The notes under the pieces: generated by a model
The model's database searches: none
The model's input: only the letters and a program-made list of their open reading frames with translations
Told to the model about the DNA's origin: nothing
In this document: in pieces, positions 36,223 through 57,821 of the stretch
Numbering within the stretch: the stretch's first letter is position 1
Layout of the letters: each line of letters opens with the position of its first letter
From: a bacterium
GTDB taxonomy: Bacteria; Zhuqueibacterota; Zhuqueibacteria; Residuimicrobiales; Krinioviventaceae
Length of the DNA: 64,000 nt
Assembly: GCA_963693055.1 (NCBI GenBank)
Contig: OY843751.1
Location: 4,640,001 to 4,704,000 of the forward strand
Direction: 5' to 3'
Position numbers and translations under genes: made by a program

Positions 36223-37392
36223 TTATTTATTCCCTTTTGCTCTATTGTGCGTTTTACATAACATTTGACAGTTATTAATATCTGTTGCTCCGCCTTTACT
36301 CCACGCTGTGACATGGTCTGCATCCATTTCACTGAGTTTCCAAATTTTTGTTTTGTTAGAGTCGTGTCCAATTGCACATAAAGGACAGTTCGAAATACTA
36401 TCTTCTTCTGCTTCTGATGTTTGTTTCTTATAAATAGTTTTTTTTGTAGCCTCGTCAAAAACTCTAACTTCTAAAAGCTTTGTATCTGTTGAGCCACCAA
36501 GTATATATTCAAAGACCCCTTTCCGATTCTTAATATAAGGGTCTCCATAAAGTTCATTTACCTGCTCTGACACTTTTTTAGCATTATACGATTTTTTGTG
36601 GTATTCTTCATAAAGACGACCCCATTCAAGCCCTTTCATTTCAGATTCAACGTCTGTAAATACAGTTGAAACCCAGTCAATAACGCAATTGAAATATGTT
36701 TTTAGTTCATTAATATTGGTATCATGACGATGACGGCTCATATATCCCCCAATATTACCTTTGCTTACCCAATCAAATGCACGTTCCAAAAAATCTTGAC
36801 GGTTAGCACTGCCTTTTATATATGCACTCCATTTTTGAATGTTAGCGTTTTGAGAATTACTAAATTCCTCTTTTGCCAAAGTAACAAATTGACCAGAATA
36901 AACAGCATTTAGCAATTCTTGATTGCTTAGCGGAACCCCTGCAATATTGATTGTTTTAAACCATTCTTTAATCTCACTTTCAGTTCCCTCGCACTCATAG
37001 ATAAGAAGTTTTGTATCTAAAATCTTATTCTTTTTATCTACTGCAAAACCACCGAATAATTGTTCATTACCGTTTTCATCTTTGATAGCAAATTTATTTG
37101 TAACGAAACGGCCAAAACTTGTAATGCGTTGTTGGCCATCAAGAACCTCCAATTTATCATCACTAACTTTATTAAAATATATCAATCCAATAGGATAACC
37201 TTTCAGTATTGACTCAATAACGGCAATCTCCCTTTTACCACCATCGGAAGCATAAATGTAATTTCTTTGATATTCAGGTTGTATAGTTAGTTTTCCCGCA
37301 AGTCCAAATAATCCTTTACCTTCAAGTTCATTATAGACAAAGCCTTCACAAATATCTTTTACTGTAATGTCCGTTATTAATGTCGTTATCAT
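36223..37392 (-). CDS. DUF262 (ParB-like/GmrS-type) + C-terminal HNH endonuclease
   Basis: PEYQRNY, LDGQQR, FKTIN.AG.PL; DADHVTAWSKGG...NCQMLCKTHNRAK. Confidence 0.9.
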   Translation of the reverse strand: MITTLITDITVKDICEGFVYNELEGKGLFGLAGKLTIQPEYQRNYIYASDGGKREIAVIESILKGYPIGLIYFNKVSDDKLEVLDGQQRITSFGRFVTNKFAIKDENGNEQLFGGFAVDKKNKILDTKLLIYECEGTESEIKEWFKTINIAGVPLSNQELLNAVYSGQFVTLAKEEFSNSQNANIQKWSAYIKGSANRQDFLERAFDWVSKGNIGGYMSRHRHDTNINELKTYFNCVIDWVSTVFTDVESEMKGLEWGRLYEEYHKKSYNAKKVSEQVNELYGDPYIKNRKGVFEYILGGSTDTKLLEVRVFDEATKKTIYKKQTSEAEEDSISNCPLCAIGHDSNKTKIWKLSEMDADHVTAWSKGGATDINNCQMLCKTHNRAKGNK

Positions 37393-37396
37393 TTGC

Positions 37397-38524
37397 TTAC
37401 CTTTTCTTTATAAAAATTCGCTTGTATACTTTTTTGTTTTTTACATAGGGCTCGTTATGCTTCTTAAAATGTGGTAATTTATATTTTTCATCAACAACAC
37501 CGTTATCACTTGCACCAATTATTTCAAACTGTTCAGGATTGTATTTGTCTAAGAAAGTAATGGGTACACCCATCACACCGTCATAATCACTTGGTATAGC
37601 ATCTGTATAAGGAACCTCAATTGCATCATAATTATCATATTTTGTATACTCTTTTCCTTTAATATTCTTATGGGAGCTAAACCTAATATTATCATTCATA
37701 GTCATCAAAGGTAGTGGTTGGTGTCTTTTGCCGTGGTCTAAATTAGTGAACCAGAGACAATTGTTTGTAGCTACAATTCTATTTCCATCTTCATCAATAC
37801 GAGCTTCTGTTCCAAATAACTCGTATGTTTCCGGCACAATAAAACCAGAAATCCAGCGCCCCATTCCAGTTCCAAGCCACATCTTATTTTCTTTAATCAA
37901 AGGGAATACTTCTTTATATGTAATGGCATTAATATTTGCAATAATTAAAAATTTCTTCTCATATTCGACAAGTTGCCTTATATACTGGCGAAAAAGACTA
38001 AATGGTGGATTGGTAACTACAATATCGGATTGTTTCAATAATGATATAGCTTCATCACTTCGAAAATCACCATCCCCATTTAAAGGTGTCCATTCATTTT
38101 GCTTATTATGTTTTAACTGCAATGCTACATCTTTCAAGCTAAATTCGCCATCGCCATCAATATCCCCAACTGAATTAATTATAAATCTATTGGCTGTTAT
38201 CTTCGGACGTCCTTTTACTTTTATAAGGGTCGAGTCATCGCCAAATAATTTAATTTGCGTATTGGCAATAGGTGAAGGCTTATAACTGGTTGTAATAAGC
38301 TGTTTTAAACCAATTCGCTTAAAGTTTAAAACGAAATATCTAAAAAAATTACTTTCAAATGGATCATCACAGTTACAATAAACAACTTTACTTCGAAATA
38401 CATCAGGATTAAATTCAAGATAAGCTTCAATCTCTTTTTGGATATCATTATACTGTGTATAAAATTCATCACTTTTAGATCTTTTAGCTTTATGTAGTAA
38501 TTTGTTCGTTGCATTTCTTGCCAT
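37397..38524 (-). CDS. Adenine-specific DNA methyltransferase, M.EcoRI family
   Basis: DEFYT, YCNCDDP, GDFRS, VTNPPFSLF, MGVPITFLDKYNPEQF. Confidence 0.9.
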   Translation of the reverse strand: MARNATNKLLHKAKRSKSDEFYTQYNDIQKEIEAYLEFNPDVFRSKVVYCNCDDPFESNFFRYFVLNFKRIGLKQLITTSYKPSPIANTQIKLFGDDSTLIKVKGRPKITANRFIINSVGDIDGDGEFSLKDVALQLKHNKQNEWTPLNGDGDFRSDEAISLLKQSDIVVTNPPFSLFRQYIRQLVEYEKKFLIIANINAITYKEVFPLIKENKMWLGTGMGRWISGFIVPETYELFGTEARIDEDGNRIVATNNCLWFTNLDHGKRHQPLPLMTMNDNIRFSSHKNIKGKEYTKYDNYDAIEVPYTDAIPSDYDGVMGVPITFLDKYNPEQFEIIGASDNGVVDEKYKLPHFKKHNEPYVKNKKVYKRIFIKKR

Positions 38525-39538
38525 GAAATTAAATATCCTTATTTAAATCTAAATTTTACATTTGTAAAAATCAGTTTTCAATTTTGCACTATCGACTCTT
38601 ACACTTACCACTTATAGACGTATATTATCATTGTGCTTATACTGCCATAATAGATGTACAACAATAATTATTTATATATTTCTTTTATCAATTCTGTTTT
38701 AATACTCATACATATGAATAACATTCAACATGTTTGACAACCAACTATATAATGCAAAAACTTGTCGTATAACAAAAATATACAAAGCATGTCAAGCTTT
38801 TAAAAATCAGAATTTTATCATTAAAAAATATGCTGTTGCTTTTATGTTATATGACTTTTATAACATAAAAGCATTTTATTATAATATTGCGCCACTAGGA
38901 TTGTGAATATCTTTATCGTCATAGTTAGATACATAAGAATAGATCGTCGTACGTAAAAATGATTTCCACCAAAAGCCCCATATAATTATATTTTAAAAAA
39001 TAATTAATGAATTTCCATAAAAATATGCAACTAAAAAGTGCCCTAGTTCTTAAAAAATGACGATTAAATAATTTATACACCCTTTGTTATCAACTTACCT
39101 TGCGAAACCAACCCCCAATATTCCCAATCGCTTCGCTGAACTCATTTCCCCAACGGTGCCAAATTTAATAAGAGATGATCAATTCACGACATACCAGAGC
39201 GACTTTTTCATCGAATACCTTTGCCTACACAAAATCGCCGTTTTTTTAACTGGCTCCGTAACTCACATGATCTTCCTTATGCTGTCTAATAGTCCGTAAA
39301 GTCGTCTACTTCAAATGCCGCTTGCTTCAAACTTTCTGTCAGGGATTGAAACATACATACGTAAACCATCCTCCCAAGGGAATCAAAACCCATGGAAAGA
39401 TTCTCCGTATCTCAAGGGGTTCAATTTTCTATTATCATCAGTGTAAATCCGTGGCTAATTTCCCATTCTTTTTTTGAGCCACAGATCTGCAAAGATCCTC
39501 ACGGATTGCTTGTAAAAGTCCTACCCGATCCCCTCATT

Positions 39539-39964
39539 CTCCGTCCCAAATTCGCAGACAGTGTAAAATTAGAAAACAATTTTGTTTTTGGAGTGCATCG
39601 CCTTTATGCGATGCGTCGGACCGAAGGTCCGATTTAAATCCGCCTGCATTTCAAATATTATAGATTCATTATTATGATGTAAATTCAATATTTTTATACA
39701 AATATAGTTGAGTAGAGGCCGTCTTTGACGGCCCGCTGTACATAAAGGTACAGCACTCCACGTCTTTGTCATTTCTCTAAGGATTAATTATATTTCCATT
39801 TTTTTAGTATTAATTTTTTTTCACAGTCTGTTGATTTGGGACGGAACTATGGTGCAAAGCTCTGCTTTGCAAATATCTATAAATTAAGGTATTGTGAACT
39901 GTGCAATTCTCTCCAGGCACAGCCTGGAGCCAACTTTCCTGCCCAAATCCAATTCGGGCAGGAG
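39539..39964. repeat. Composite repeat copy 2: same palindrome with a ~276-bp MITE-like insert (39555-39830)
   Basis: ctccgtcccaaattcg [cagacagtgtaaaa...tttttcacagtctg] ttgatttgggacggaact; internal sequence highly similar to copy 1. Confidence 0.8.
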
Positions 39965-40028
39965 ATTTGTGAGCATTCAACAGTCATACAAGGATTGAGA
40001 ATCCTCGGGAAGATTTGCTATTAGACTC

Positions 40029-41224: not shown

Positions 41225-42925
41225 TCATTGTTTTCTTTGCTCATCTTTGATTCGCTCAATCATTTGTTTTCCATTTTCATTATCAGAATTCAATTCAATG
41301 GATTTCTTGTAATATAGCAATGAAAGATCATAGCGCCTGGTGTTATAAAAATATTCCGCATAACTATCCCAAACATTAAACGCATTCGGAAAAATCAATG
41401 TATTAACTTTGAAAACAGATCCTGCTCTTTCCAAATCACCTTTTTGCATCAAAACATAGCCTGCATTATTTATACTCTTTTCAAGCACCTTTTGATCAAA
41501 AATAGTAGACCACTCATAGTTTTTATATTTATCCTTCAAATGATGATAATACTCTAAAGCCGCACTGGCACCATTATCCGCTGCATAATCCGGAACGGAA
41601 ACCAACTCTGTACCATCAATAACCAATTCTAAAGCAGGATCATTACCCGAAAAGTAATCCTTACTTGAAAATGGAGCGGGAACATTGGGTTGAAAATATA
41701 TCGTTTGTGATGACCATGCATTATCTATTTGTCTCGATGCAATACCCAATCCGAACCCACTGTTAGGAAGATTTCCGACAAATTTCATATCACTAAAAAA
41801 ATTAAAAGGAGATGCCGAAGGCTCACCTATAAAAACAGCATTTGTATGTACTGCTAATTCGGTCATTAATATTACTGCTGCACTATATGTCCGATTACCA
41901 ATAAACACAAACACATTTTCTTTACCATTCAATTTATCTCTTTTAATAATTTGATTTATAAATGGTATTAACAGCCGACCATTCCCACCATCATTATAAC
42001 GTATATCCAGCACAAGTTTATCAATCTCATTTTCATGTAGATCAAAGTATGACCAAAAACGCTCAGAGAATTGAAAAAATGTTTCATTATTACCCGGTTG
42101 GTTAGCAACTTGGTTCAGTTGAAAATAAATAATTTTTTCATCAGACAAATGTTCAAACCAATAAAATTTCACATTCTTGTCTTGTTTTCTTAAATGAAGG
42201 GGAGTTGCTTTACCTAGAATTGTAGCCGCATGAACATATTCTCCCTCTGTAGGCCCCATATTTAACCTGTTAGACCAGGTGATTTTGCTGTTATCATGTA
42301 TTGATTTTAATGTAAGACTTTTTCGTTCACCATCTCTTGTCATTAAATCCAAACGTATTCTTTCTAAATTATCTCCTAATCCTAATCCATTCAATACTCT
42401 GGCAAATGTAATTCCCCGAAGCGCCGGACTTTTCCTACCGAACTTGGAATCCAAATTCGTAACACTTTCAAGAACAGACGTCACCTCTTCTATAGATTGG
42501 CCATTCACATTAATAACACGGGAACCCAAATATTGCTCATGTTCTTTATCGATGACTGTTATAAAAACACCATCTGAAAAATGGGCCAACCTAAAAGGGA
42601 ACCTTAAATCAGTTAAATCTAAAAACCCTTGATCAAAAAGTTGTGTATGCCCATCTTGAATGCTTGCAATAACTTTTTTAATTGAATAAAAAGCCCCCAA
42701 ATCCGATTCTGCAGCTTTTATTTCATTCACAGCCTGTTCAACAATAGAATTAAAATCATCTCGGGTTACTCTATAATATAGATTAGGATGATGTAATTTC
42801 AGATTTGATACTACAAAATCAAGATCATTTAACCACTGCTCAGTTGTAAATGCTTTTCCTGTTGTTGCAAAAACCTGAGATATAATACCAAAAACAAGAA
42901 TCAAAGAAATTTTCAAGATCTTCAT
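41225..42925 (-). CDS. Secreted S41-family peptidase-like protein with C-terminal TPR
   Basis: HPN, DGHT, LVLDIRYNDGG, RTYSAA (putative catalytic Ser), IGEP, DPALE; C-terminal FPNAFNVWDSYAE TPR. Confidence 0.75.
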   Translation of the reverse strand: MKILKISLILVFGIISQVFATTGKAFTTEQWLNDLDFVVSNLKLHHPNLYYRVTRDDFNSIVEQAVNEIKAAESDLGAFYSIKKVIASIQDGHTQLFDQGFLDLTDLRFPFRLAHFSDGVFITVIDKEHEQYLGSRVINVNGQSIEEVTSVLESVTNLDSKFGRKSPALRGITFARVLNGLGLGDNLERIRLDLMTRDGERKSLTLKSIHDNSKITWSNRLNMGPTEGEYVHAATILGKATPLHLRKQDKNVKFYWFEHLSDEKIIYFQLNQVANQPGNNETFFQFSERFWSYFDLHENEIDKLVLDIRYNDGGNGRLLIPFINQIIKRDKLNGKENVFVFIGNRTYSAAVILMTELAVHTNAVFIGEPSASPFNFFSDMKFVGNLPNSGFGLGIASRQIDNAWSSQTIYFQPNVPAPFSSKDYFSGNDPALELVIDGTELVSVPDYAADNGASAALEYYHHLKDKYKNYEWSTIFDQKVLEKSINNAGYVLMQKGDLERAGSVFKVNTLIFPNAFNVWDSYAEYFYNTRRYDLSLLYYKKSIELNSDNENGKQMIERIKDEQRKQ

Positions 42926-43197
42926 AATTAACAACCTAAACTTTATTTACACAAAATAAATTCAACCTGGTTAGTAAAAGAAATCCGGTGTATTAGTATA
43001 TTACTTTTTCAGTATTAAGACAATCTTTTTTAGGTAAAATTCACTACAATTGCTTGATCTAAATCAAATCAGTATATAATAATAAAATCCATTTACCAGA
43101 TCAGCTAATACTCACATTTGTGGAGATTTACTATCCCTGTTTGAATAGTGTCTCTCCTTAATCCAATTTAACAAAATTAATAAAAAATATTGGATCG

Positions 43198-43872
43198 TCA
43201 AAACCGGTAGCTCAACAAATCCATTTTAACGCCAGGGCCACCACAGGAATCACGGAAATAACCCACCTGGCCTATAGACACACTTTTCTCTGATTTGACG
43301 GGACCCAGATTGTAGGCAAGCATTGAAAATGCAGTTGGCAAGACATATGTTAAAACGACTCCCAAATTAGAATCTGCGGTTTCAAGCGCTACCATAGCAA
43401 TACCGGTCCCCAAAACAGAGCCGCCCAACGCCCATAGAAACGATCTGTTTTTCTTTGCAATCAATCCTGTAACATGTACGCCACCCGCTATTCCCAACGC
43501 GTAACCTGCAAAAACCGTAAGAAACAATCCTCCCACATCTGTATCCCGATTATTGATAAACTGATTGCCATCAATTGCCAATCCCGCTGCTACACCCAGG
43601 GCTCCCCCCAATTCTGCCATTAGTAACTGCACCACGTAATAGTCGGTTTCATATACAGGCTGCTTCATATCAGACAACCGCAAAGCATTCATCGAAACAC
43701 CCGGTTCTGAATTATACCGAAAAGTATTCATACGCATGTCGTTCTGAAGAGCATTGGAACGGGAAAAAAGATGATGACCGGATGAATTGTTTTGAATTTG
43801 TGCAGAGACTAACGAGCTGATCATAAACAGCAACACCAACATCACTTGTCCAAAAACTATTTCTTTTCTCAT
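43198..43872 (-). CDS. Array paralog 7: exported glycine-zipper protein
   Basis: Signal peptide, GxxxG helices, tail GQVGYFRDSCGGPGVKMDLLSYRF. Confidence 0.85.
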   Translation of the reverse strand: MRKEIVFGQVMLVLLFMISSLVSAQIQNNSSGHHLFSRSNALQNDMRMNTFRYNSEPGVSMNALRLSDMKQPVYETDYYVVQLLMAELGGALGVAAGLAIDGNQFINNRDTDVGGLFLTVFAGYALGIAGGVHVTGLIAKKNRSFLWALGGSVLGTGIAMVALETADSNLGVVLTYVLPTAFSMLAYNLGPVKSEKSVSIGQVGYFRDSCGGPGVKMDLLSYRF

Positions 43873-43895
43873 AACTTATTCCCTCACAAAAAACA

Positions 43896-44606
43896 TTAAA
43901 ACCGATAGTTTAACAAATCCATTTTAACACCAAGGCCGCCGCAGGCATCTTGATAATAGCCAAGCTGTCCCACAGAGATTTCTTTTTTACTTCTGTTATA
44001 ATCTAAATTCGAACTTGAATTATAATAGAGCATTGAAATAGCAGGCGGTAAACCAAATGCCGCAATGAATCCCATAGCGTTCGAATCAAAATCACCTCCC
44101 AGTGAAGCGAGGGTTAATCCAATTCCCGCACCTACTCCAAACATTGTTCCAACCAAAGCACGCCAATAGGAACCATCATCAATTCTATCTTTACCAACCT
44201 TATTCACACCTATTGGTACAGCAAAAAGATATCCAACATAAGCACCCACAATGGAATAACCCAATGCTTCCAAACCACCATCTCCAGCTAGCCCTAAAAC
44301 TAAAAAACCGGTACCTCCAGCAAGTATACCCAGCGCACCACAAACTTGAGACGTAATGAATTGCTCCACATAATAATCAACAGTTAAATTATGATTCTCA
44401 AACGTCTTTGAGCTATTCAATGGATTAGAGTTCAAGTTAGTACAATATCGATCCAAATGAAATGTATTTCCTCCCTGGTAATTATAGGGAATTAACCTTA
44501 CAGAAGGATCACCGCACTCGGCAGACTCTTTCCCCAATAATGTTGCACTCGTGTTCAATAATAAACAAAACATTACAATCCTAAAACCATAATAATCCAT
44601 ATCCAC
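43896..44606 (-). CDS. Array paralog 6: exported glycine-zipper protein
   Basis: LIPYNYQG motif, GxxxG helices, tail GQLGYYQDACGGLGVKMDLLNYRF. Confidence 0.85.
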   Translation of the reverse strand: MDMDYYGFRIVMFCLLLNTSATLLGKESAECGDPSVRLIPYNYQGGNTFHLDRYCTNLNSNPLNSSKTFENHNLTVDYYVEQFITSQVCGALGILAGGTGFLVLGLAGDGGLEALGYSIVGAYVGYLFAVPIGVNKVGKDRIDDGSYWRALVGTMFGVGAGIGLTLASLGGDFDSNAMGFIAAFGLPPAISMLYYNSSSNLDYNRSKKEISVGQLGYYQDACGGLGVKMDLLNYRF

Positions 44607-44712
44607 CTCTCAAAATAACCGTATCCACATGTATTCATCTAACTTTTTTGTTTTCCCAAAATTATCGGGCTACCCTTTTCAAAAATTGATCATCCCTCCA
44701 AAAGTAACCAGA

Positions 44713-45408
44713 TCAAAACCTGTAACTCAACAAATCCATTTTAACACCGAGGCCTCCGCAGGCATCCTGATAATAGCCAAGCTGTCCCACAGAGATTTCT
44801 GGGGAATGATCAGTCTCTTTCAACTCTTTGTGATCTTGGGGTTTTGTTTTTTTATTATACATAGCCATTGAACAAATTGGGGGTAACAAAAAACCAGCTG
44901 TGATACTCAAAGTTGAATTACCGGGATTTGAATCCGTTTCCAATGCTAAAACACCAATTGCTATTGCTGTGCCTAATAGGGAACCCAACAATGCACGTTT
45001 GTAAGATCCGTTTTGCCCAAATGCTTCACCTATACCATATGATCCCAATGAAACTCCCATAGCAAACCCTGCATAAGTAGACAGCACTCCTCCGGCCATC
45101 GAACCGTCAAGAATATTAAAACCTATTAATGCTCCTGCAAATAAACCCAAACACCCCGATACTTCGGCTATAATAAATTGTCCAGCCAAATAATAACCAT
45201 CATAAAAATCTATATTTGTTGCTACAGCAGATTCACGATCATTTAATTGTGGAGATTGATATTGACACAGATTTACCGACCTCTCACCCTGATAATTGTA
45301 TGGTACCAACCGGGGAGTGTTATCGGATTTGCTTTCGGGTTCCTGTGCGTAAACCGTAAAAGAGAATGCCGTGCAGATAGTGACAAGAAACAAAAAGCGG
45401 TTTTTCAA
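44713..45408 (-). CDS. Array paralog 5: exported glycine-zipper protein
   Basis: AAGGAG RBS + TTG; LVPYNYQG; tail GQLGYYQDACGGLGVKMDLLSYRF. Confidence 0.85.
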   Translation of the reverse strand: MKNRFLFLVTICTAFSFTVYAQEPESKSDNTPRLVPYNYQGERSVNLCQYQSPQLNDRESAVATNIDFYDGYYLAGQFIIAEVSGCLGLFAGALIGFNILDGSMAGGVLSTYAGFAMGVSLGSYGIGEAFGQNGSYKRALLGSLLGTAIAIGVLALETDSNPGNSTLSITAGFLLPPICSMAMYNKKTKPQDHKELKETDHSPEISVGQLGYYQDACGGLGVKMDLLSYRF

Positions 45409-45647
45409 AATATGTCTCCTTGATAGAATTATAACCCAAACAGGAATTTCCCCATGCGTTTTTTATTTTAGTTTTTTAATCTGTAATGTATGTATGTACG
45501 AATGGATATGCTCAATGTTCCATTTTGAAACCGCGCAAATCCTGCTAAAGGCCGGGAGTACTTTTGAGAGTTCAACACTAGAAAAAAACAGCATTCAATC
45601 CTATCATCCTTAAATCCTATGAATCATAATTCAGACAGGTAACCAGA
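45409..45647. repeat. 239-bp intergenic direct repeat, copy A
   Basis: 8 mismatches by manual alignment versus 46356-46594; similarity extends into both flanking gene ends. Confidence 0.92.
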
Positions 45648-46355
45648 TCAAAACCTGTAACTCAACACATCCATTTTAACACCGAGGCCTCCGCAGGCAT
45701 CCTGATAATAGCCAAGCTGCCCCACAGTGATTTCAGGGGATAAATCAGTCTCTTTGAATTTATTGGGATATTTGGGTTTAAATTTTCTGTTATAATTTAT
45801 CATGGAACAGATTGTGGGCATAAGAAGCAATGCAGGACCTGTAAATACCGGAGTCTTGCTGTCTTTTTCTATTGCTGCTATGGTCATTCCTATACATGCC
45901 CCAAATAAAGAACCTTTCAGTGCTCGCCAATATGTACCATTTTGTACCTGTTTATAACCTGTTCCGTGTACTCCAAAAGCAACCCCTAATGTATACGACG
46001 TATACCCCACAACGATTGCAGCAGCAAGTCCATCCCATCCCTCTCTCCTGAACAAAGCTGGCCCCACGAGTACACCGGTTGTCATCCCAAGCCCACCTAC
46101 AAACTCTGCCATTAAAAATTGTTTAACAAAATATCCGACCGTAGCGCCTTGACCGGTTTCTGATAAAGGTTCGACAGAACCCTGTAAATTCAATGGACCG
46201 GGATTACACCAATACAAGTTGACAGTACTTTTGCCATGAAAATTATACGGAACCAGCCGGGGAGTATTATCGAATTTGCTTTCGGGTTCCTGTGCGTAAA
46301 CCGTAAAAGAAAATACCATACCAATACTAAGAAGAAACAACAAACTGTTTTTCAA
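45648..46355 (-). CDS. Array paralog 4: exported glycine-zipper protein
   Basis: AAGGAG RBS + TTG; LVPYNFHG; tail GQLGYYQDACGGLGVKMDVLSYRF. Confidence 0.85.
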   Translation of the reverse strand: MKNSLLFLLSIGMVFSFTVYAQEPESKFDNTPRLVPYNFHGKSTVNLYWCNPGPLNLQGSVEPLSETGQGATVGYFVKQFLMAEFVGGLGMTTGVLVGPALFRREGWDGLAAAIVVGYTSYTLGVAFGVHGTGYKQVQNGTYWRALKGSLFGACIGMTIAAIEKDSKTPVFTGPALLLMPTICSMINYNRKFKPKYPNKFKETDLSPEITVGQLGYYQDACGGLGVKMDVLSYRF

Positions 46356-46594
46356 AATATATCTCCTTAATAGATTTATAACCCAAACAGGAATTTCCCC
46401 ATGCGTTTTTTATTTTAATTTTTTAATCTGTAATGTATGTATGTACGAATGGATATGATCAATGTTCCATTTTGAAACCGCGCAAATCCTGCTAAAGGCC
46501 GGGAGTACTTTTGAGAGTTCAACACTAGAAAAAAACAGCATTCAATCCTATCATCCTTAAATCCTATAAATCATAATTCAGACAGGAAACCACA
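46356..46594. repeat. 239-bp intergenic direct repeat, copy B
   Basis: Offset 947 bp from copy A. Confidence 0.92.
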
Positions 46595-47290
46595 TCAAAA
46601 CCTGCAACTCAACAAATCAATCTTAACGCCAGGGCCGCCGCATGCATCCTGATAATACCCAAGCTGCCCTGTAGATATTTCTGGTCCATGGGATTTAGTG
46701 TTGCCTTTATTATATAATATCATTGAAAGCGGAATCGGCAGTAGAAACGTCAATGCCGCCCCCACATTGGCTACTTCTGAACCTTGGCCCGCGATAATGG
46801 CGCCCAGCCCAATACTGGTTCCAATTGCAGATCCCATCAAGGCGCGTAAAAACGGCAAATCCTTATTATTGATGATACCAACCACATGCACACCTGTTGC
46901 AACTCCCAGAGCATATCCCGCATAAGCAAATCCAACCAGCTTTACAAAATCACTGCCTTCTTCATCATCACTGAATTCAACCCCGCTAAAGTTCACTCCT
47001 GCTGCTGTCCCCAACGCTCCCCCCAATCCTGCTATTAAAAACTGTGATATTAAATACCCGCCTTCTGGTGGTTTGCTATTTTTTACGGATATATTATCTG
47101 AATAACTGAATAAAATCGAATTCGCATGATACCGGTTTAAATCCACTCCCATATCCTTTTGCTGAATAAAGGGAATAATTCGGGCTGCATTTTCAAATGT
47201 AATACCTAAACCCGGATCGGTCGCATACACTGCCTGCGCAAATAAAAGACATACCATTAACACACTGCTAAAGCCTAATTTTTTTTTCAT
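46595..47290 (-). CDS. Array paralog 3: exported glycine-zipper protein
   Basis: Signal peptide, GxxxG helices, tail GQLGYYQDACGGPGVKIDLLSCRF. Confidence 0.85.
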   Translation of the reverse strand: MKKKLGFSSVLMVCLLFAQAVYATDPGLGITFENAARIIPFIQQKDMGVDLNRYHANSILFSYSDNISVKNSKPPEGGYLISQFLIAGLGGALGTAAGVNFSGVEFSDDEEGSDFVKLVGFAYAGYALGVATGVHVVGIINNKDLPFLRALMGSAIGTSIGLGAIIAGQGSEVANVGAALTFLLPIPLSMILYNKGNTKSHGPEISTGQLGYYQDACGGPGVKIDLLSCRF

Positions 47291-47377
47291 TCAAGCACCC
47301 CATTCCAGTTTGTAAACCCGGATTTATCCCCGGGAACCTAAAAAAATTCTATACCGATTACAAAGCAATTCCGACTA

Positions 47378-48073
47378 TTAAAATCTACAACTCAATAAAT
47401 TCATTTTAACGCCTGGTCCGCCACATGCATCCTGATAGCATCCAAACTGACCGGCAGATATTTCCACAGGACTGGTTTTATTCGCACTTGCAACAGAATC
47501 TCGTTTATTATAAAGCATTATGGAACATACAGGTGGCAGCAAAACAAGAGACGAAAGACTAATTACGGCCTGGGGCTTGTTATTATCCAATTGAGAGGCA
47601 ATGGCTATTGCCAATCCTGCTCCAATCAAAGACCCTTTTAGCGCCTTACCAAAAGAACTGGAGACATTTGCATAACTCCCAACCTTGTGCACACCAAAAG
47701 CCGAACCCAAGGCATACCCGGCATAAGCACCGATCACGACAAATTCAATACCATCCATGTCTTCACTTTGGCCATCAACAAAAGGTATGCCGCAAATTCC
47801 CCCAACAAAGGACATGACTATACCATCAATTTCTGCAGACACAAATTGTTTAATATGCAATTTCGAATTTATTTTTTTTTGTTCTTTTTGATTAAATTTG
47901 GATAATGCACTTGCAGAGTCCTGTCCGGTATTCATACTATAGAGAACAGATTTATTCTCACCGCTGCTACAAAAAGATACCGGGAATAATTTCTCAACAG
48001 CCAGGATTTTTGAGGCAAACAACAGTATAAAAATCAACAAAAAACTTGAATGTATTAACCGAATGTTCAACAT
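47378..48073 (-). CDS. Array paralog 2: exported glycine-zipper protein
   Basis: GAGGGG RBS favours ATG 48073; tail GQFGCYQDACGGPGVKMNLLSCRF. Confidence 0.85.
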   Translation of the reverse strand: MLNIRLIHSSFLLIFILLFASKILAVEKLFPVSFCSSGENKSVLYSMNTGQDSASALSKFNQKEQKKINSKLHIKQFVSAEIDGIVMSFVGGICGIPFVDGQSEDMDGIEFVVIGAYAGYALGSAFGVHKVGSYANVSSSFGKALKGSLIGAGLAIAIASQLDNNKPQAVISLSSLVLLPPVCSIMLYNKRDSVASANKTSPVEISAGQFGCYQDACGGPGVKMNLLSCRF

Positions 48074-48114
48074 TTCCCCTCTCAAATATTAATAATCGCA
48101 ATAGACAATCAGCT

Positions 48115-48870
48115 CTAAAATTGCCAGCTAAAAACATTCACATTTACAACATTACCCCTCTTTTCATCATGAGAATAGTTGAACGCATTCAGGGATAATC
48201 CTACATTCCCGCCATCAATGCTCACAACCGAATCCAGATAATTCATATGGTTGGTAATATTATAACTTGCTATAGCGCCTATGGTTGGCAAAAAAAGTGT
48301 CAAGACCGAAATACGTCCCTCATCATTAAATTCTTCATCACTATCATCATAAGCATTTTCAATCATTATTCCTATCCCTGTTCCAATTACCGCGCTGGTC
48401 AACGTCCACCAAAACGATCCGTCTCTGTCCGCCTTTTCACCGACCCTATACACACCATCCACAACCCCATATGTATAACCAGCGGATATAACATAATATC
48501 CGGTATCAGACAAATCCCAATCATTCCCCAATTGTGCAGCATATACAACCAGGGCACTTGCAAGCAGACACATTAGCCCTTCGGTTTCTGCCATTAGAAA
48601 CTGTAAACCATAATATTGAATTGAATTAAAAACACTGAGATCCTGGGCCCTGTATCCATCAGACACTGAATTGAGCTTAACATAGTCCAGACTATAGGTT
48701 TCATTACCCTGATAGTTAAAAGGAACCAAAACCGGACCATCGTCAATAGTCTTAATTTGACGGGTCATTGCAAATGTGTTTTTATTACTCTGTAAAAGGT
48801 CTTGCGCAAAAACCATTGAACAAAAAATCAGTGTTACTAAAACCCCGGCCCGTATTGATCTGAGATACAT
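48115..48870 (-). CDS. Array paralog 1 (most divergent): exported glycine-zipper protein
   Basis: LVPFNYQG, QFLMAE, GSFWW and LP...YN motifs shared with the family; different tail NVVNVNVFSWQF. Confidence 0.8.
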   Translation of the reverse strand: MYLRSIRAGVLVTLIFCSMVFAQDLLQSNKNTFAMTRQIKTIDDGPVLVPFNYQGNETYSLDYVKLNSVSDGYRAQDLSVFNSIQYYGLQFLMAETEGLMCLLASALVVYAAQLGNDWDLSDTGYYVISAGYTYGVVDGVYRVGEKADRDGSFWWTLTSAVIGTGIGIMIENAYDDSDEEFNDEGRISVLTLFLPTIGAIASYNITNHMNYLDSVVSIDGGNVGLSLNAFNYSHDEKRGNVVNVNVFSWQF

Positions 48871-53872: not shown

Positions 53873-55594
53873 ATGACTGGTGCAGAAATGATTTTACATG
53901 CTTTAAAAAAAGAAGGCGTAAACGCGGTTTTCGGTTATCCGGGAGCCTCGGTAATCGACATTTTTGATTTACTGTATGAAGGAGAAATCCCGTTTTATCT
54001 GGTCAGACATGAACAGGGCGCGGTACACGCGGCAGACGGTTTTGCCCGCGCATCCGGCAAAGTGGGAGTTTGTCTGGCTACTTCCGGACCCGGTGCTACC
54101 AACCTGGTAACCGGTCTGGCTACAGCTCATATGGATTCTATCCCCATGGTTGCCATTACCGGGCAGGTAGCCACCCACCTGATAGGAAACGATGCGTTTC
54201 AGGAAGTCGACATGGTGGGTATCAGCAGACCCATTACCAAGCACAACTATTTGGTTAATTCAGTAAAAGACTTGCCCAAAATTTTAAAACAGGCTTTTCA
54301 TATTGCACGTAGCGGCAGGCCCGGTCCGGTTTTAATTGACATTCCCAAAGATCTTCAACGAATGGAATGTACCGTTCCCTATCCGGATAAAGTAGAAATC
54401 TCCAGCTACAAGCCAACCTTAAAAGGCCATACGCAGCAGCTTAAAAAAGCGATAACATTAATCGAACGCAGTAAAAAACCGGTCATTTACGCGGGCGGTG
54501 GCGTTATTGCCAGCGAAGCAAGCAGCGAACTGCGGACCTTTGCTGAAAAGATCAATGCTCCTGTTACAACAACCTTGATGGGATTAGGGATTTACGATGA
54601 AACCGCACCCAACGCACTAAAAATGCTGGGTATGCACGGTACCGAATATGCCAATTACTCTATTCAGGCATGCGATTTGTTAATTGCAGTTGGTGCTCGG
54701 TTTGATGACAGGGTAACCGGAAAAGTTGATAAATTTGCACCCAATGCCAAAATCATTCATATTGATATCGATCCCACAACCATCCGTAAAAACGTTCAGG
54801 TAAATATACCTATTGTTGGAGATGTAAAACATGTTCTGGCAGATCTGGTAGAAATGATTGAGCAACAAGATAAAGCAGAATGGATTTCACAGGTGCGGGA
54901 ATGGAAAGAAAAGCATCCCCTGACATTTAAAAACGATGGTTTTATTCAACCCCAATTTGTGATCGAAAAAATCGCAGAAATGACAGACCATAAAGCAATT
55001 ATTACTACCGAAGTGGGGCAGAACCAGATGTGGAGTGCACAGTTTTTCAATTTCAAACATCCGCGAACCTTTTTATCATCCGGCGGCCTGGGAACCATGG
55101 GCTATGGATTCCCCGCAGCTATTGGTGCCCAAATTGCCCACCCGGATAAAGTTGTGATTGATATTGCAGGCGACGGCAGCATTCAAATGAACATACAGGA
55201 ACTGGCAACAGCTGTTTTGTACCAAATACCCGTCAAGATTGTAATCCTTAACAATCGTTCCTTGGGCATGGTAAGACAATGGCAGGCCATATTCTATGAC
55301 AAACGATTTGCTTCAACCTGTATGCGCCGAAATGCCCAATGTCCACCGCAGTGTGAACAAACTGAAGAATTTTGCCCTACCGAATATGTGCCCAATTTCG
55401 TCAAACTGGCAAAAGCCTATGGTGCAACCGGTTTTTACGCGGACAAAGTTGAGGATGTAGTACCCACTTTGGGAAAAATGTTGAATACGCCGGGTCCTGT
55501 TGTTGTTGAATTCAAGATAGAAGCAGAAGAAAATGTTTACCCCATGGTGCCGGCTGGCGCACCTATTCATGAAATGATAAGAGGCATGGCATAA
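53873..55594 (+). CDS. ilvB: Acetolactate synthase large subunit, copy 1
   Basis: FGYPG, RHEQGA, TSGPGATN, RFDDRVTG, GDGS...NN ThDP motif. Confidence 0.96.
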   Translation: MTGAEMILHALKKEGVNAVFGYPGASVIDIFDLLYEGEIPFYLVRHEQGAVHAADGFARASGKVGVCLATSGPGATNLVTGLATAHMDSIPMVAITGQVATHLIGNDAFQEVDMVGISRPITKHNYLVNSVKDLPKILKQAFHIARSGRPGPVLIDIPKDLQRMECTVPYPDKVEISSYKPTLKGHTQQLKKAITLIERSKKPVIYAGGGVIASEASSELRTFAEKINAPVTTTLMGLGIYDETAPNALKMLGMHGTEYANYSIQACDLLIAVGARFDDRVTGKVDKFAPNAKIIHIDIDPTTIRKNVQVNIPIVGDVKHVLADLVEMIEQQDKAEWISQVREWKEKHPLTFKNDGFIQPQFVIEKIAEMTDHKAIITTEVGQNQMWSAQFFNFKHPRTFLSSGGLGTMGYGFPAAIGAQIAHPDKVVIDIAGDGSIQMNIQELATAVLYQIPVKIVILNNRSLGMVRQWQAIFYDKRFASTCMRRNAQCPPQCEQTEEFCPTEYVPNFVKLAKAYGATGFYADKVEDVVPTLGKMLNTPGPVVVEFKIEAEENVYPMVPAGAPIHEMIRGMA

Positions 55595-56099: not shown

Positions 56100-57821
56100 A
56101 TGACTGGTGCAGAAATGATCGTTCACGCTTTAAAACAAGAGGGTGTACGTGCGTTATTCGGTTACCCGGGTGGTTCGGTAATCGATATCTTTGATGTATT
56201 GTACAATTCAGATCTTCCATTTTATCTTGTGCGGCATGAACAAGGTGCAGTCCACGCTGCAGACGGTTTTGCACGTGCATCCGGTGAAGTGGGTGTCTGC
56301 CTTGCAACTTCAGGACCGGGGGCCACAAACCTGGTGACAGGTTTAGCTACAGCTCATATGGACTCTATTCCGATGGTGGCAATAACAGGACAAGTTCATA
56401 CACATCTGATTGGTAACGATGCATTTCAAGAAGTAGACATTGTTGGCATCAGCAGACCCATTACAAAGCACAATTATCTGGTGAGTTCGGTTGATGAATT
56501 GCCTAAAATTTTGAAACAAGCATTTTATCTGGCCCGCACCGGCAGACCTGGTCCGGTATTGGTGGATATCCCCAAAGATATTCAACAAACCGAGTGCAAA
56601 GTCCCCTATCCGGATAAAGTAGAAATTCCAAGCTACAAGCCAACAATGAAGGGTCATTTGCAGCAGCTTAAAAAAGTTGCCAAAGCAATTGAACAGAGTA
56701 AACAACCCGTCATTTATGCAGGTGGTGGAGTTATAGCAAGCGAAGCAAGTAATGAACTCCGCACTTTTGCTAAAAAGATCAATGCTCCTGTAACTACAAC
56801 CCTTATGGGACTTGGAATTTATGACGAAACTGATGATGACGCATTAAAAATGCTGGGCATGCACGGTACGGAATATGCCAATTACTCTATTCAGGCATGC
56901 GATCTGTTAATTGCGGTTGGTGCTCGCTTTGATGACAGAGTTACCGGCAAAGTCGATAAATTCGCAGCCAATGCTACAATTATTCATATCGATATCGACC
57001 CTACAACTATTCGCAAAAACGTTCAGGTCAACATTCCCATTGTTGGTGATATTAAACATGTTCTTACTGATCTGAACGAGCTCATTGAACAGCAGGATAA
57101 AAAAGAATGGATGTCTCAGGTTCATGAATGGAAAGAAAAACATCCACTGGTTTACAAGAACGATGGACATATTCAGCCACAATATATCATTGAAAAACTG
57201 GCTGAAATGACTGATCACAATGCGGTTATCTCTACCGAAGTGGGTCAAAACCAGATGTGGGCGGCACAGTTTTATAATTATAAACATCCACGTACCTTTT
57301 TATCATCTGGTGGTTTGGGAACCATGGGTTACGGATTTCCCGCAGCCATTGGCGCCCAAGTTGCCCAGCCGGACAAGGTTGTTATTGACATTGCGGGTGA
57401 TGGCAGCATCCAGATGAACATACAGGAACTGGCTACCGCAGTATTGTATCAGATCCCCGTCAAGATTGTTATTCTCAATAATCGCTCACTCGGTATGGTG
57501 AGACAATGGCAGGGTATATTTTATGACAGACGCTTTTCATCTACATGCTTGCGGCGCAATGCCATGTGCCCGCCGCAATGTAAACAAACTGAGGAGTTCT
57601 GCCCGAACGAATACGTCCCAAATTTCGTCAAACTGGCAGAAGCCTATGGTGCAGCCGGACTTTATGCGGACAAAGTTGAGGATGTAGTACCCACTTTGAA
57701 AAAAATGCTGAATACTCCGGGCCCGGTTGTTGTTGAATTCAAGATAGAAGCTGAAGAAAATGTTTACCCCATGGTGCCGGCTGGTGCCCCAATCCATGAA
57801 ATGATAAGAGGAATGGCATAA
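56100..57821 (+). CDS. ilvB: Acetolactate synthase large subunit, copy 2
   Basis: Same motifs and same length (573 aa) as copy 1; overlaps the ilvN start (TAATG). Confidence 0.96.
   Translation: MTGAEMIVHALKQEGVRALFGYPGGSVIDIFDVLYNSDLPFYLVRHEQGAVHAADGFARASGEVGVCLATSGPGATNLVTGLATAHMDSIPMVAITGQVHTHLIGNDAFQEVDIVGISRPITKHNYLVSSVDELPKILKQAFYLARTGRPGPVLVDIPKDIQQTECKVPYPDKVEIPSYKPTMKGHLQQLKKVAKAIEQSKQPVIYAGGGVIASEASNELRTFAKKINAPVTTTLMGLGIYDETDDDALKMLGMHGTEYANYSIQACDLLIAVGARFDDRVTGKVDKFAANATIIHIDIDPTTIRKNVQVNIPIVGDIKHVLTDLNELIEQQDKKEWMSQVHEWKEKHPLVYKNDGHIQPQYIIEKLAEMTDHNAVISTEVGQNQMWAAQFYNYKHPRTFLSSGGLGTMGYGFPAAIGAQVAQPDKVVIDIAGDGSIQMNIQELATAVLYQIPVKIVILNNRSLGMVRQWQGIFYDRRFSSTCLRRNAMCPPQCKQTEEFCPNEYVPNFVKLAEAYGAAGLYADKVEDVVPTLKKMLNTPGPVVVEFKIEAEENVYPMVPAGAPIHEMIRGMA

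Follow-up and report, generated by a model that had tools for sequence, protein, structure and literature searches.

Why would the DNA between neighbouring genes stay almost identical while the genes that it separates have drifted far apart? This question is raised by a tandem array of seven same-strand paralogues at positions 43198-48870 of a stretch of bacterial DNA of 64,000 nucleotides (nt), hereafter the window (GenBank assembly GCA_963693055.1, contig OY843751.1, positions 4,640,001 to 4,704,000; phylum Zhuqueibacterota, family Krinioviventaceae). The array genes were numbered g1 to g7 from the left, and transcription runs from g7 to g1. A previous sequence-only reading of the window had counted the paralogues in the order of transcription; its paralogues 4 and 5 correspond to g4 and g3, and its 3 to 6 to g5 to g2. 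Throughout, A denotes the window genome (G000) and B a sister species of the same genus (G001), whose mean nucleotide identity to A is 90.4% over 224 genes. Our results indicate that the inverted pattern at this locus consists of old cores with recently copied ends.

The two long spacers, at 45409-45647 and 46356-46594, differ at 8 of 239 positions, exactly as the sequence-only reading had stated, and the likeness extends into the gene ends, as it had also seen: g3 and g4 agree at 31 of 42 residues in the N-terminal end and at 26 of 28 in the C-terminal end. A 97-nt tail repeat occurs six times in the array. Its estimate by eye that the cores of these two genes share about a third of their residues agrees with the alignment (49 of 140 aligned residues, 35%). 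Codons that encode the same amino acid in g3 and g4 date these similarities. The tail has 24 identical codons out of 25, where saturation would leave about 10, and the N-terminal end has 23 of 31 (12.6 expected), whereas in the helical core the count is 16 of 42 (15.0 expected) and thus saturated. Common silent sites in the tail, and saturation in the core, mean that the ends are alike at the DNA level and recently so, and that the split of the cores is ancient.

A comparison with related genomes was made to learn how the constant and the divergent parts have evolved. Among the 41 relatives and the 167 genomes of the phylum searched (31 of the 167 with a family match), only A and B yielded ten matches each, and the others one or two. 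No third strain with the array was found, so that it is seen in two genomes only. In B the order is 7-6-5-X-4-3-1, with g2 missing and an extra core, X, and the cores common to both genomes keep the same order, as far as two genomes can tell. Within each species the spacers are nearly identical (231 of 239 positions in A, 144 of 153 in B, where one copy is without 84 nt), whereas at orthologous positions across species the identity is 203/237 and 126/154 (82-86%). For the g4 spacer the orthology is uncertain, X being missing in A; compared with the X spacer of B, it is identical at 187 of 234 positions. Five single-copy intergenic stretches compared between the species are identical at 420 of 465 positions (90%).

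The opposite histories of spacer and core become evident in the quartet of A3, A4, B3 and B4, that is, g3 and g4 of each species. Informative sites of the spacer group the sequences by species in 16 cases and by locus in none; those of the core do so by species in none and by locus in 190 (Fisher p = 4e-24 for the contrast). Approximately unbiased (AU) tests rejected orthology for the spacers (p = 5e-60) and grouping by species for the cores (p = 9e-94). Over the last 130 spacer columns, identity is 125/130 within A and 127/128 within B, compared to 110/128 and 108/129 across species, and homogenisation took place in both lineages. This grouping of spacers by species and of cores by locus means that the spacers undergo concerted evolution, and we regard their homogenisation within each genome as almost certain.

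The cores, in turn, are conserved. For the helical cores of A and B, non-synonymous and synonymous divergence (dN/dS) are 0/0.159 in g3, 0.014/0.044 in g4, 0.010/0.133 in g5, 0.047/0.30 in g1, 0.035/0.22 in g6 and 0.08/0.26 in g7, with dN below dS in all six orthologous pairs, and the core orthologues of g3 and g4 are 96-98% identical at the nucleotide level. The cores are therefore conserved and not hypervariable. The term variable cores used in the sequence-only reading thus holds in that they are anciently divergent, but they are old paralogues that are not diversifying rapidly, as their dN lies well below dS.

Core 4 stands apart in age. Its proportion of differing silent sites (pS) between A and B is 3.5/101.5 (0.034), compared with a background median of 0.32, about ten times less than the genome background. 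The background comprised 218 non-array genes from 20 loci of B, cut into 531 non-overlapping windows of 143 codons; genes below 80% identity, 80% coverage or 143 codons were excluded, a filter that lowers the background and thereby makes the comparison conservative. None of the 531 background windows is as low as core 4, and one of the 218 genes is when any sliding window is allowed. Differences between A4 and B4 concentrate in codons 1-41 and 194-235. The core is also significantly younger than the spacer on either side (p = 0.004 and 0.0005) and than its neighbours, cores 3 and 5 (p = 0.024 and 0.014). Silent divergence so far below the background suggests an import between the flanks, and we lean, with somewhat better than even confidence, towards core 4 having been imported on its own between the arms, as we call the constant stretches made of one gene's tail, the spacer and the next gene's start. 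As a separate observation, silent divergence between A and B varies regionally from <0.1 to about 0.6 (L053-L068), suggesting patchy interspecies recombination.

The two species also differ in whole cores. The g3 orthologue of B carries a g2-like tail (5 of 87 nt differ from the g2 tail, 8 of 87 from the g3 tail), followed by the spacer found downstream of g2, and the matching joint in contigs skips 817 nt. This junction falls outside the dispersed repeat described below and within the tail repeat, where an unequal crossover would be the simplest explanation. Core X of B is flanked by arms on both sides. Gain or loss of cores at the arms is accordingly very likely. The recombination between constant flanks that the sequence-only reading had proposed thus finds support in spacers homogenised per species, in whole cores present in one species and absent from the other, and in a core 4 far younger than the species split. 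Coordinates of the array and its parts are given in Table 1.

Table 1. Array genes, spacers, repeats and arm in the window.
Feature	Position	Strand	Remark
g7, first gene of the array (251 aa)	48115..48870	-	tail divergent; orthologue present in B
g6 (230 aa counted from ATG)	47378..48070	-	open reading frame (ORF) finder runs on to 48085
g5 (231 aa)	46595..47290	-	
Long spacer upstream of g4, 239 nt	46356..46594	-	dispersed repeat, predicted extracytoplasmic function (ECF) promoter, ribosome-binding site (RBS)
Dispersed intergenic repeat, copy 2, about 45 nt	46539..46584	no strand	
Predicted ECF-sigma promoter GGAAC-N16-CGTA	46444..46468	-	88 nt upstream of g4 start
g4 (235 aa)	45648..46355	-	predicted signal helix 2-20, disordered 24-67, four-helix bundle 73-188, terminal beta-hairpin 208-234
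Core 4 (codons 46-188)	45792..46220	-	candidate recent import; silent divergence vs B 0.034
Long spacer upstream of g3, 239 nt	45409..45647	-	identity to g4 spacer 231/239
Dispersed intergenic repeat, copy 1, about 45 nt	45592..45637	no strand	genome pattern matches: 26
Predicted ECF-sigma promoter GGAAC-N16-CGTA	45497..45521	-	88 nt upstream of g3 start
Constant arm: g4 tail, spacer and g3 N-end	45287..45722	no strand	91.3% over 436 nt vs 46234-46669
g3 (231 aa)	44713..45408	-	
g3 3' end and 9 nt beyond stop	44704..44883	no strand	85% over 180 nt vs 45639-45818 (g4 3' end)
g2 (234 aa counted from ATG)	43896..44600	-	absent from B
g1, last gene of the array (224 aa)	43198..43872	-	
Tail repeat, 97 nt, encoding the terminal beta-hairpin	43889..43985	no strand	one of six (others: 43191, 44706, 45641, 46588, 47371)

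What the homogenised spacer contains was then considered. Each long spacer is composed of a 45-nt dispersed repeat, the motif GGAAC-N16-CGTA and an AAGGAG RBS. The motif lies 84-88 nt before the start codon in all five spacers of the two species, with AGTA in the X spacer. A genome-wide search for G[AG]AAC-N16-CGTA gave 91 matches, 29 of them non-coding and 28 upstream of a same-strand gene, whereas the other eight spacings from 12 to 20 together gave 413 matches, 26 of them non-coding and 13 upstream of such a gene. Between the five spacers, 18 of 18 and 13 of 14 columns of the promoter boxes are conserved, compared to 7 of 16 in the gap; conserved boxes around a varying gap indicate a local regulatory constraint, as expected of a predicted promoter and not of an RNA. 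Both boxes match the sigma-W-type ECF promoter of Bacillus subtilis (-35 tgaAAC, -10 CGTA) as quoted in an excerpt of PMC5758882. The motif is very probably an ECF-sigma promoter. A scan for sigma-70 promoters and terminators gave results at chance level. The 28 upstream sites define a candidate ECF regulon, several of which precede genes for TetR-like regulators and secreted proteins, as N-terminal sequences inspected by eye suggest.

The 45-nt repeat is built of ATCC-type units, ends in ATTCAGAC, usually lies near gene ends and resembles repetitive extragenic palindromic (REP) elements. Three of its 26 pattern matches in A overlap called ORFs; it is also dispersed in B and was not found in 19 other relatives. 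As a possible marker of GxxExxY genes it was discarded after a crude pattern search, in which none of six short-ORF matches lay beside a repeat copy. A module of 170-190 nt containing the repeat recurs between Rhs-type toxin/immunity modules. Runs of C-terminal Rhs-core fragments with small downstream genes occur at G000:C1:5146500-5162500 (L074) and at about 2229000-2234000; they include a SitA6-like/SitI6 pair and look like an orphan toxin-immunity cassette array.

The array encodes predicted envelope proteins. All seven ORFs are full length, each with an N-terminal signal-like stretch, and AlphaFold2, run with 150 sequences, models g4 as a signal helix followed by disorder, a four-helix bundle predicted with confidence (residues 73-188) and a terminal beta-hairpin. 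The predicted features of the proteins are a Sec signal, four glycine-rich membrane helices and an amphipathic terminal hairpin. The family numbers 686 representatives at 50% clustering (E <= 0.001). We collected 153 family proteins, 121 of which could be classified by their helix-end pattern; 92 of these have the tail, which alternates in polarity and ends in a hydrophobic residue in 93% (69 Phe). Compared with the consensus beta-signal of the beta-barrel assembly machinery (BAM), the tail shows the features tested, namely a signal peptide together with an amphipathic terminal strand and an aromatic end, with a bulge at -5/-6, and a profile of the tail alone picked out no other protein class in the genome. 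The hairpin likely acts as a BAM-type outer-membrane signal, the chances of an outer-membrane location being about even, and the most likely role would be that of an envelope-stress-induced oligomer that stabilises the membrane or forms pores.

Searches of Pfam, NCBIfam, PADLOC, PHROGs and PDB sequences left the family unassigned, and a full-text literature search, with most subscription journals outside its reach, retrieved no description of it. Neighbours in the protein atlas are hypothetical proteins, some weakly resembling glycine-zipper proteins. No match to g4 was found in plasmids or phages, and no conserved neighbourhood was apparent by eye around homologues at 20 loci, where the Pfam domains of the neighbours were not scanned. 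Three single family members lie outside the array in A (G000:C1:53419-53961, 698481-699161 and 5167740-5168330); the first is frameshifted in A and intact in B, and two of the three are without the hairpin tail. Extra N-terminal domains occur in P0017, P0040, P0107, P0149 and others, and 6 of 150 members match staphylococcal nuclease, suggesting that the helical core and tail can anchor cargo.

Taken together, the findings probably describe anciently diverged tandem paralogues in which recombination copies the junction DNA and the arms likely serve to delete, duplicate and import cores. Homologous recombination would keep copying the gene tail, the spacer and the start of the next gene within each species; the process may be RecA-type gene conversion with unequal crossover, and RecA and ComEC are both encoded in the genome. 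The same constant arms would be used to delete, duplicate and import the divergent cores. The predicted promoter, RBS, signal peptide and export tail all belong to the arm, so that any core inserted between a pair of arms would come to be expressed and exported. A bolder and rather doubtful extension is a plug-in cassette system for undescribed, widespread alpha-helical outer-membrane proteins with a detachable BAM-type hairpin, serving for targeting or co-assembly. If it were true, the arm would supply ECF promoter, signal peptide and export tail, cores could be traded between species, and mixed oligomers or pores might be assembled under envelope stress.

Several observations weigh against this interpretation or parts of it. 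The gene ends are patchier than the spacer in the quartet: the N-terminal ends have two sites grouping by species and two by locus, the tails three and one, with many singletons, and the tail tree has weak support. Paralogous N-terminal ends are alike at only 102-109 of 126 nt, and those of A3 and B3 track orthology (118/126); the spacer is therefore strongly homogenised, and the gene ends only in patches. With the array in two genomes only, neither gain versus loss nor the direction of transfer can be polarised. The deletion or circle junctions that the sequence-only reading had suggested looking for were not seen in contigs of the window's probable source runs, and contigs drop rare variants. 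Cores 3 and 5 also fall into the lowest 4-5% of background windows (19/531 and 25/531), and pS in the background differs greatly from gene to gene (0.17-0.51 as the 5-95% range), so that interspecies recombination is not special to the array locus. The exact promoter motif stands upstream of none of 21 ECF sigma genes, with two near matches, and so points to no cognate sigma factor. Of the classified family members, 29 of 121 have a short tail or none. The fold, finally, has no clear solved relative: Foldseek gave no match at E <= 0.001, and the best VIA-align score was Z 8.0 (5mlz; root-mean-square deviation 3.7, 116 aligned), below the tool's helical-bundle level of about 13 and with the hairpin barely covered; Tim17-like chains reached Z 5.9-7.0, also below about 13, among the Tim17/NDUFA11 or DPMS-type four-helix folds compared.

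The low silent divergence of cores 3 and 5 leaves room for a different history, in which one allelic tract of about g3 to g5 crossed the species boundary and arm conversion later erased the trace, the cores never having been separate cassettes. All cores beside long spacers lie below the background (pS 0.034, 0.128 and 0.139 vs 0.32), g1, g6, g7 and neighbouring enzyme genes are at 0.22-0.33, and the equally low window in one other sampled gene also speaks for it. Core 4 is nevertheless significantly younger than cores 3 and 5, and the spacers on either side of it are 14-18% diverged, with species variants fixed in both copies, so that a longer tract would need an extra, now lost donor copy; we consider this history rather unlikely. 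Much less probable still is a dedicated site-specific system, whether integron-, shufflon- or repeat-directed, that shuffles cores at the 45-nt repeat. That this repeat occurs both in the long spacers and, elsewhere in the genome, between Rhs-type toxin/immunity modules would fit such a system, but no recombinase turned up in a scan of 40 window proteins, the distance to the closest tyrosine recombinase is about 314 kb, the g2 junction falls within the tail repeat, and one B spacer was homogenised although it is without the 45-nt repeat; an integron or shufflon was rejected on the grounds of the missing adjacent recombinase. Nor did the same 40 proteins include a reverse transcriptase, no further search having been aimed at diversity-generating retroelements. 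In silent-cassette antigenic variation (pilS, msp2, vls), truncated or promoterless donors feed one expression site, a design that was rejected here because all seven ORFs are full length and g3 and g4 each have a predicted promoter.

Selection on export signals and promoter alone, with no ongoing recombination, could in principle keep ends and spacer alike, as tail and signal peptide are functional modules and the promoter boxes are nearly invariant. Silent sites are shared as well, however (24 of 25 in the g3/g4 tail), and the shared variants are species-specific; since selection could not bring identical new mutations to fixation in the two copies of each lineage, this explanation is highly improbable. 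The strongly constrained regulatory RNA that the sequence-only reading had offered as its second option accounts for two copies that are 97% identical. It is contradicted by an Rfam scan with no match in the spacer (one chance match fell outside it), by folding no better than in shuffles (z = 0.25), by the 84 nt missing from one B copy and by the failure to find the spacer in 19 other relatives. As orthologous spacers are less conserved between the species than other intergenic DNA, a constrained RNA is ruled out and hardly any credence is left for it, the constraint being limited to the predicted promoter. Judged from contigs, an assembly artefact has a next to negligible chance. No contig among those listed spans the whole stretch, but both N-end/spacer variants, together with the cores, are matched with 0 differences by separate Logan contigs from runs X1 and X3, and the independent assembly of another species has the same layout. 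Runs X1 and X3 are probably the window's own sample and not independent support; X4 and X5 are identical to B and not independent of it.

A similar array with homogenised 3' ends exists in a second lineage. Two contigs of the Joint Genome Institute (JGI), L072 and L073, carry four and three tandem family members; they were found with P0012, whose cluster has a protein labelled Candidatus Aerophobetes. An adjacent pair on L072 shares 58 of 63 residues and 50 of 56 silent codons over the last 63 codons, compared to 38 of 100 residues in the core. On L073 the tail similarity is only about 73%.

Recombining gene arrays are known from other bacteria. In Staphylococcus aureus, the ssl, spl and lpl clusters hold paralogues of secreted proteins in tandem, which homologous recombination rearranges at a conserved block, according to excerpts of Tsuru and Kobayashi 2008 (PMC2568036). 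Our array likewise consists of tandem same-strand paralogues with a common DNA block, its segments have incongruent trees, the block is more alike within than between genomes, and copies are gained or lost between genomes with junctions inside the block (g2 in the tail repeat, X between arms). In lpl, as described in these excerpts, the conserved block sits in the centre and the unit that moves extends over the gene junction, the reverse of the arrangement found here, where the arm also takes in the tail of the upstream gene; within-genome homogenisation, clear in our array, was undetectable there. Unlike S. aureus, the host of the array appears to be free-living. In Helicobacter pylori, target-recognition-domain movement (DoMo and Type III mod) replaces a variable central segment through recombination in conserved flanks, even across species (Furuta and Kobayashi 2012, PMC3467074, in part). 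Segment trees are incongruent in both systems, and core 4 is younger than its flanks. The flanks described in that part are short coding motifs within one gene, whereas those of the array are about 450 nt long and take in a spacer that carries a predicted promoter, and the cargo is a membrane helical bundle in place of target-recognition domains.

Protein-level parallels are looser. Borrelia P13 forms an alpha-helical oligomer in the outer membrane and loses its last 28 residues to cleavage by CtpA (parts of PMC6879480 and PMC5758756), and the conserved tail of the array proteins is likewise about 28 residues long. P13 and its paralogue family 48 (PF05628) also resemble the array proteins in signal peptide, glycine-rich helices, linker and short aromatic-ended tail, by analogy only. 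Membership in the P13 family (atlas score 0.79) was rejected, with no PF05628 match in A or B at E <= 1 and an hhalign probability of 1.7% against one P13-family sequence. The array proteins have no glycine-zipper Pfam domain, and weak matches to PF05433 and PF13441 occur in 4 and 2 of 150 members. Glycine-zipper proteins such as SlyB are lipoproteins with two helices. The glycine-zipper outer-membrane proteins (PF05433, PF13441) and the array proteins both have glycine-rich membrane helices, and there are atlas neighbours with 18-21% PF13441; the array proteins differ in having four helices, a terminal beta-hairpin and, by eye, no evident lipobox.

The evolutionary process at this locus is thus already known and the protein family is undescribed. 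The case is unusually clean, with opposite trees for spacer and core and a mapped gene-loss junction; the arm extends across the gene junction and brings together every predicted signal for expression and export, and one core seems to have passed between species whose genomes are about 90% identical. If the hairpin routes a helical protein through BAM, it would offer a simple and testable route for helical outer-membrane proteins.

The surroundings of the array hold further features. An S41 peptidase/TPR gene lies directly after it (window 41225-42934) and was dismissed as an obligate partner because B has no orthologue. At 36223-38524 a GmrSD-N/HNH nuclease adjoins an EcoRI-type adenine methylase, without a match in the syntenic locus of B. 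A non-coding element resembling a miniature inverted-repeat transposable element (MITE) occupies about 39360-40000. Its 29-nt inverted arms are separated by 248 nt (39540-39845), and the genome has about 20 partial copies of it. On the other side of the array, two acetolactate synthase large-subunit genes stand in tandem (53873-55594 and 56100-57821), encoding the same residue at 502 of 574 codons and identical at 1386 of 1722 nt, and each is preceded by a similar 66-nt leader (53607 and 55828) that may be an attenuator.

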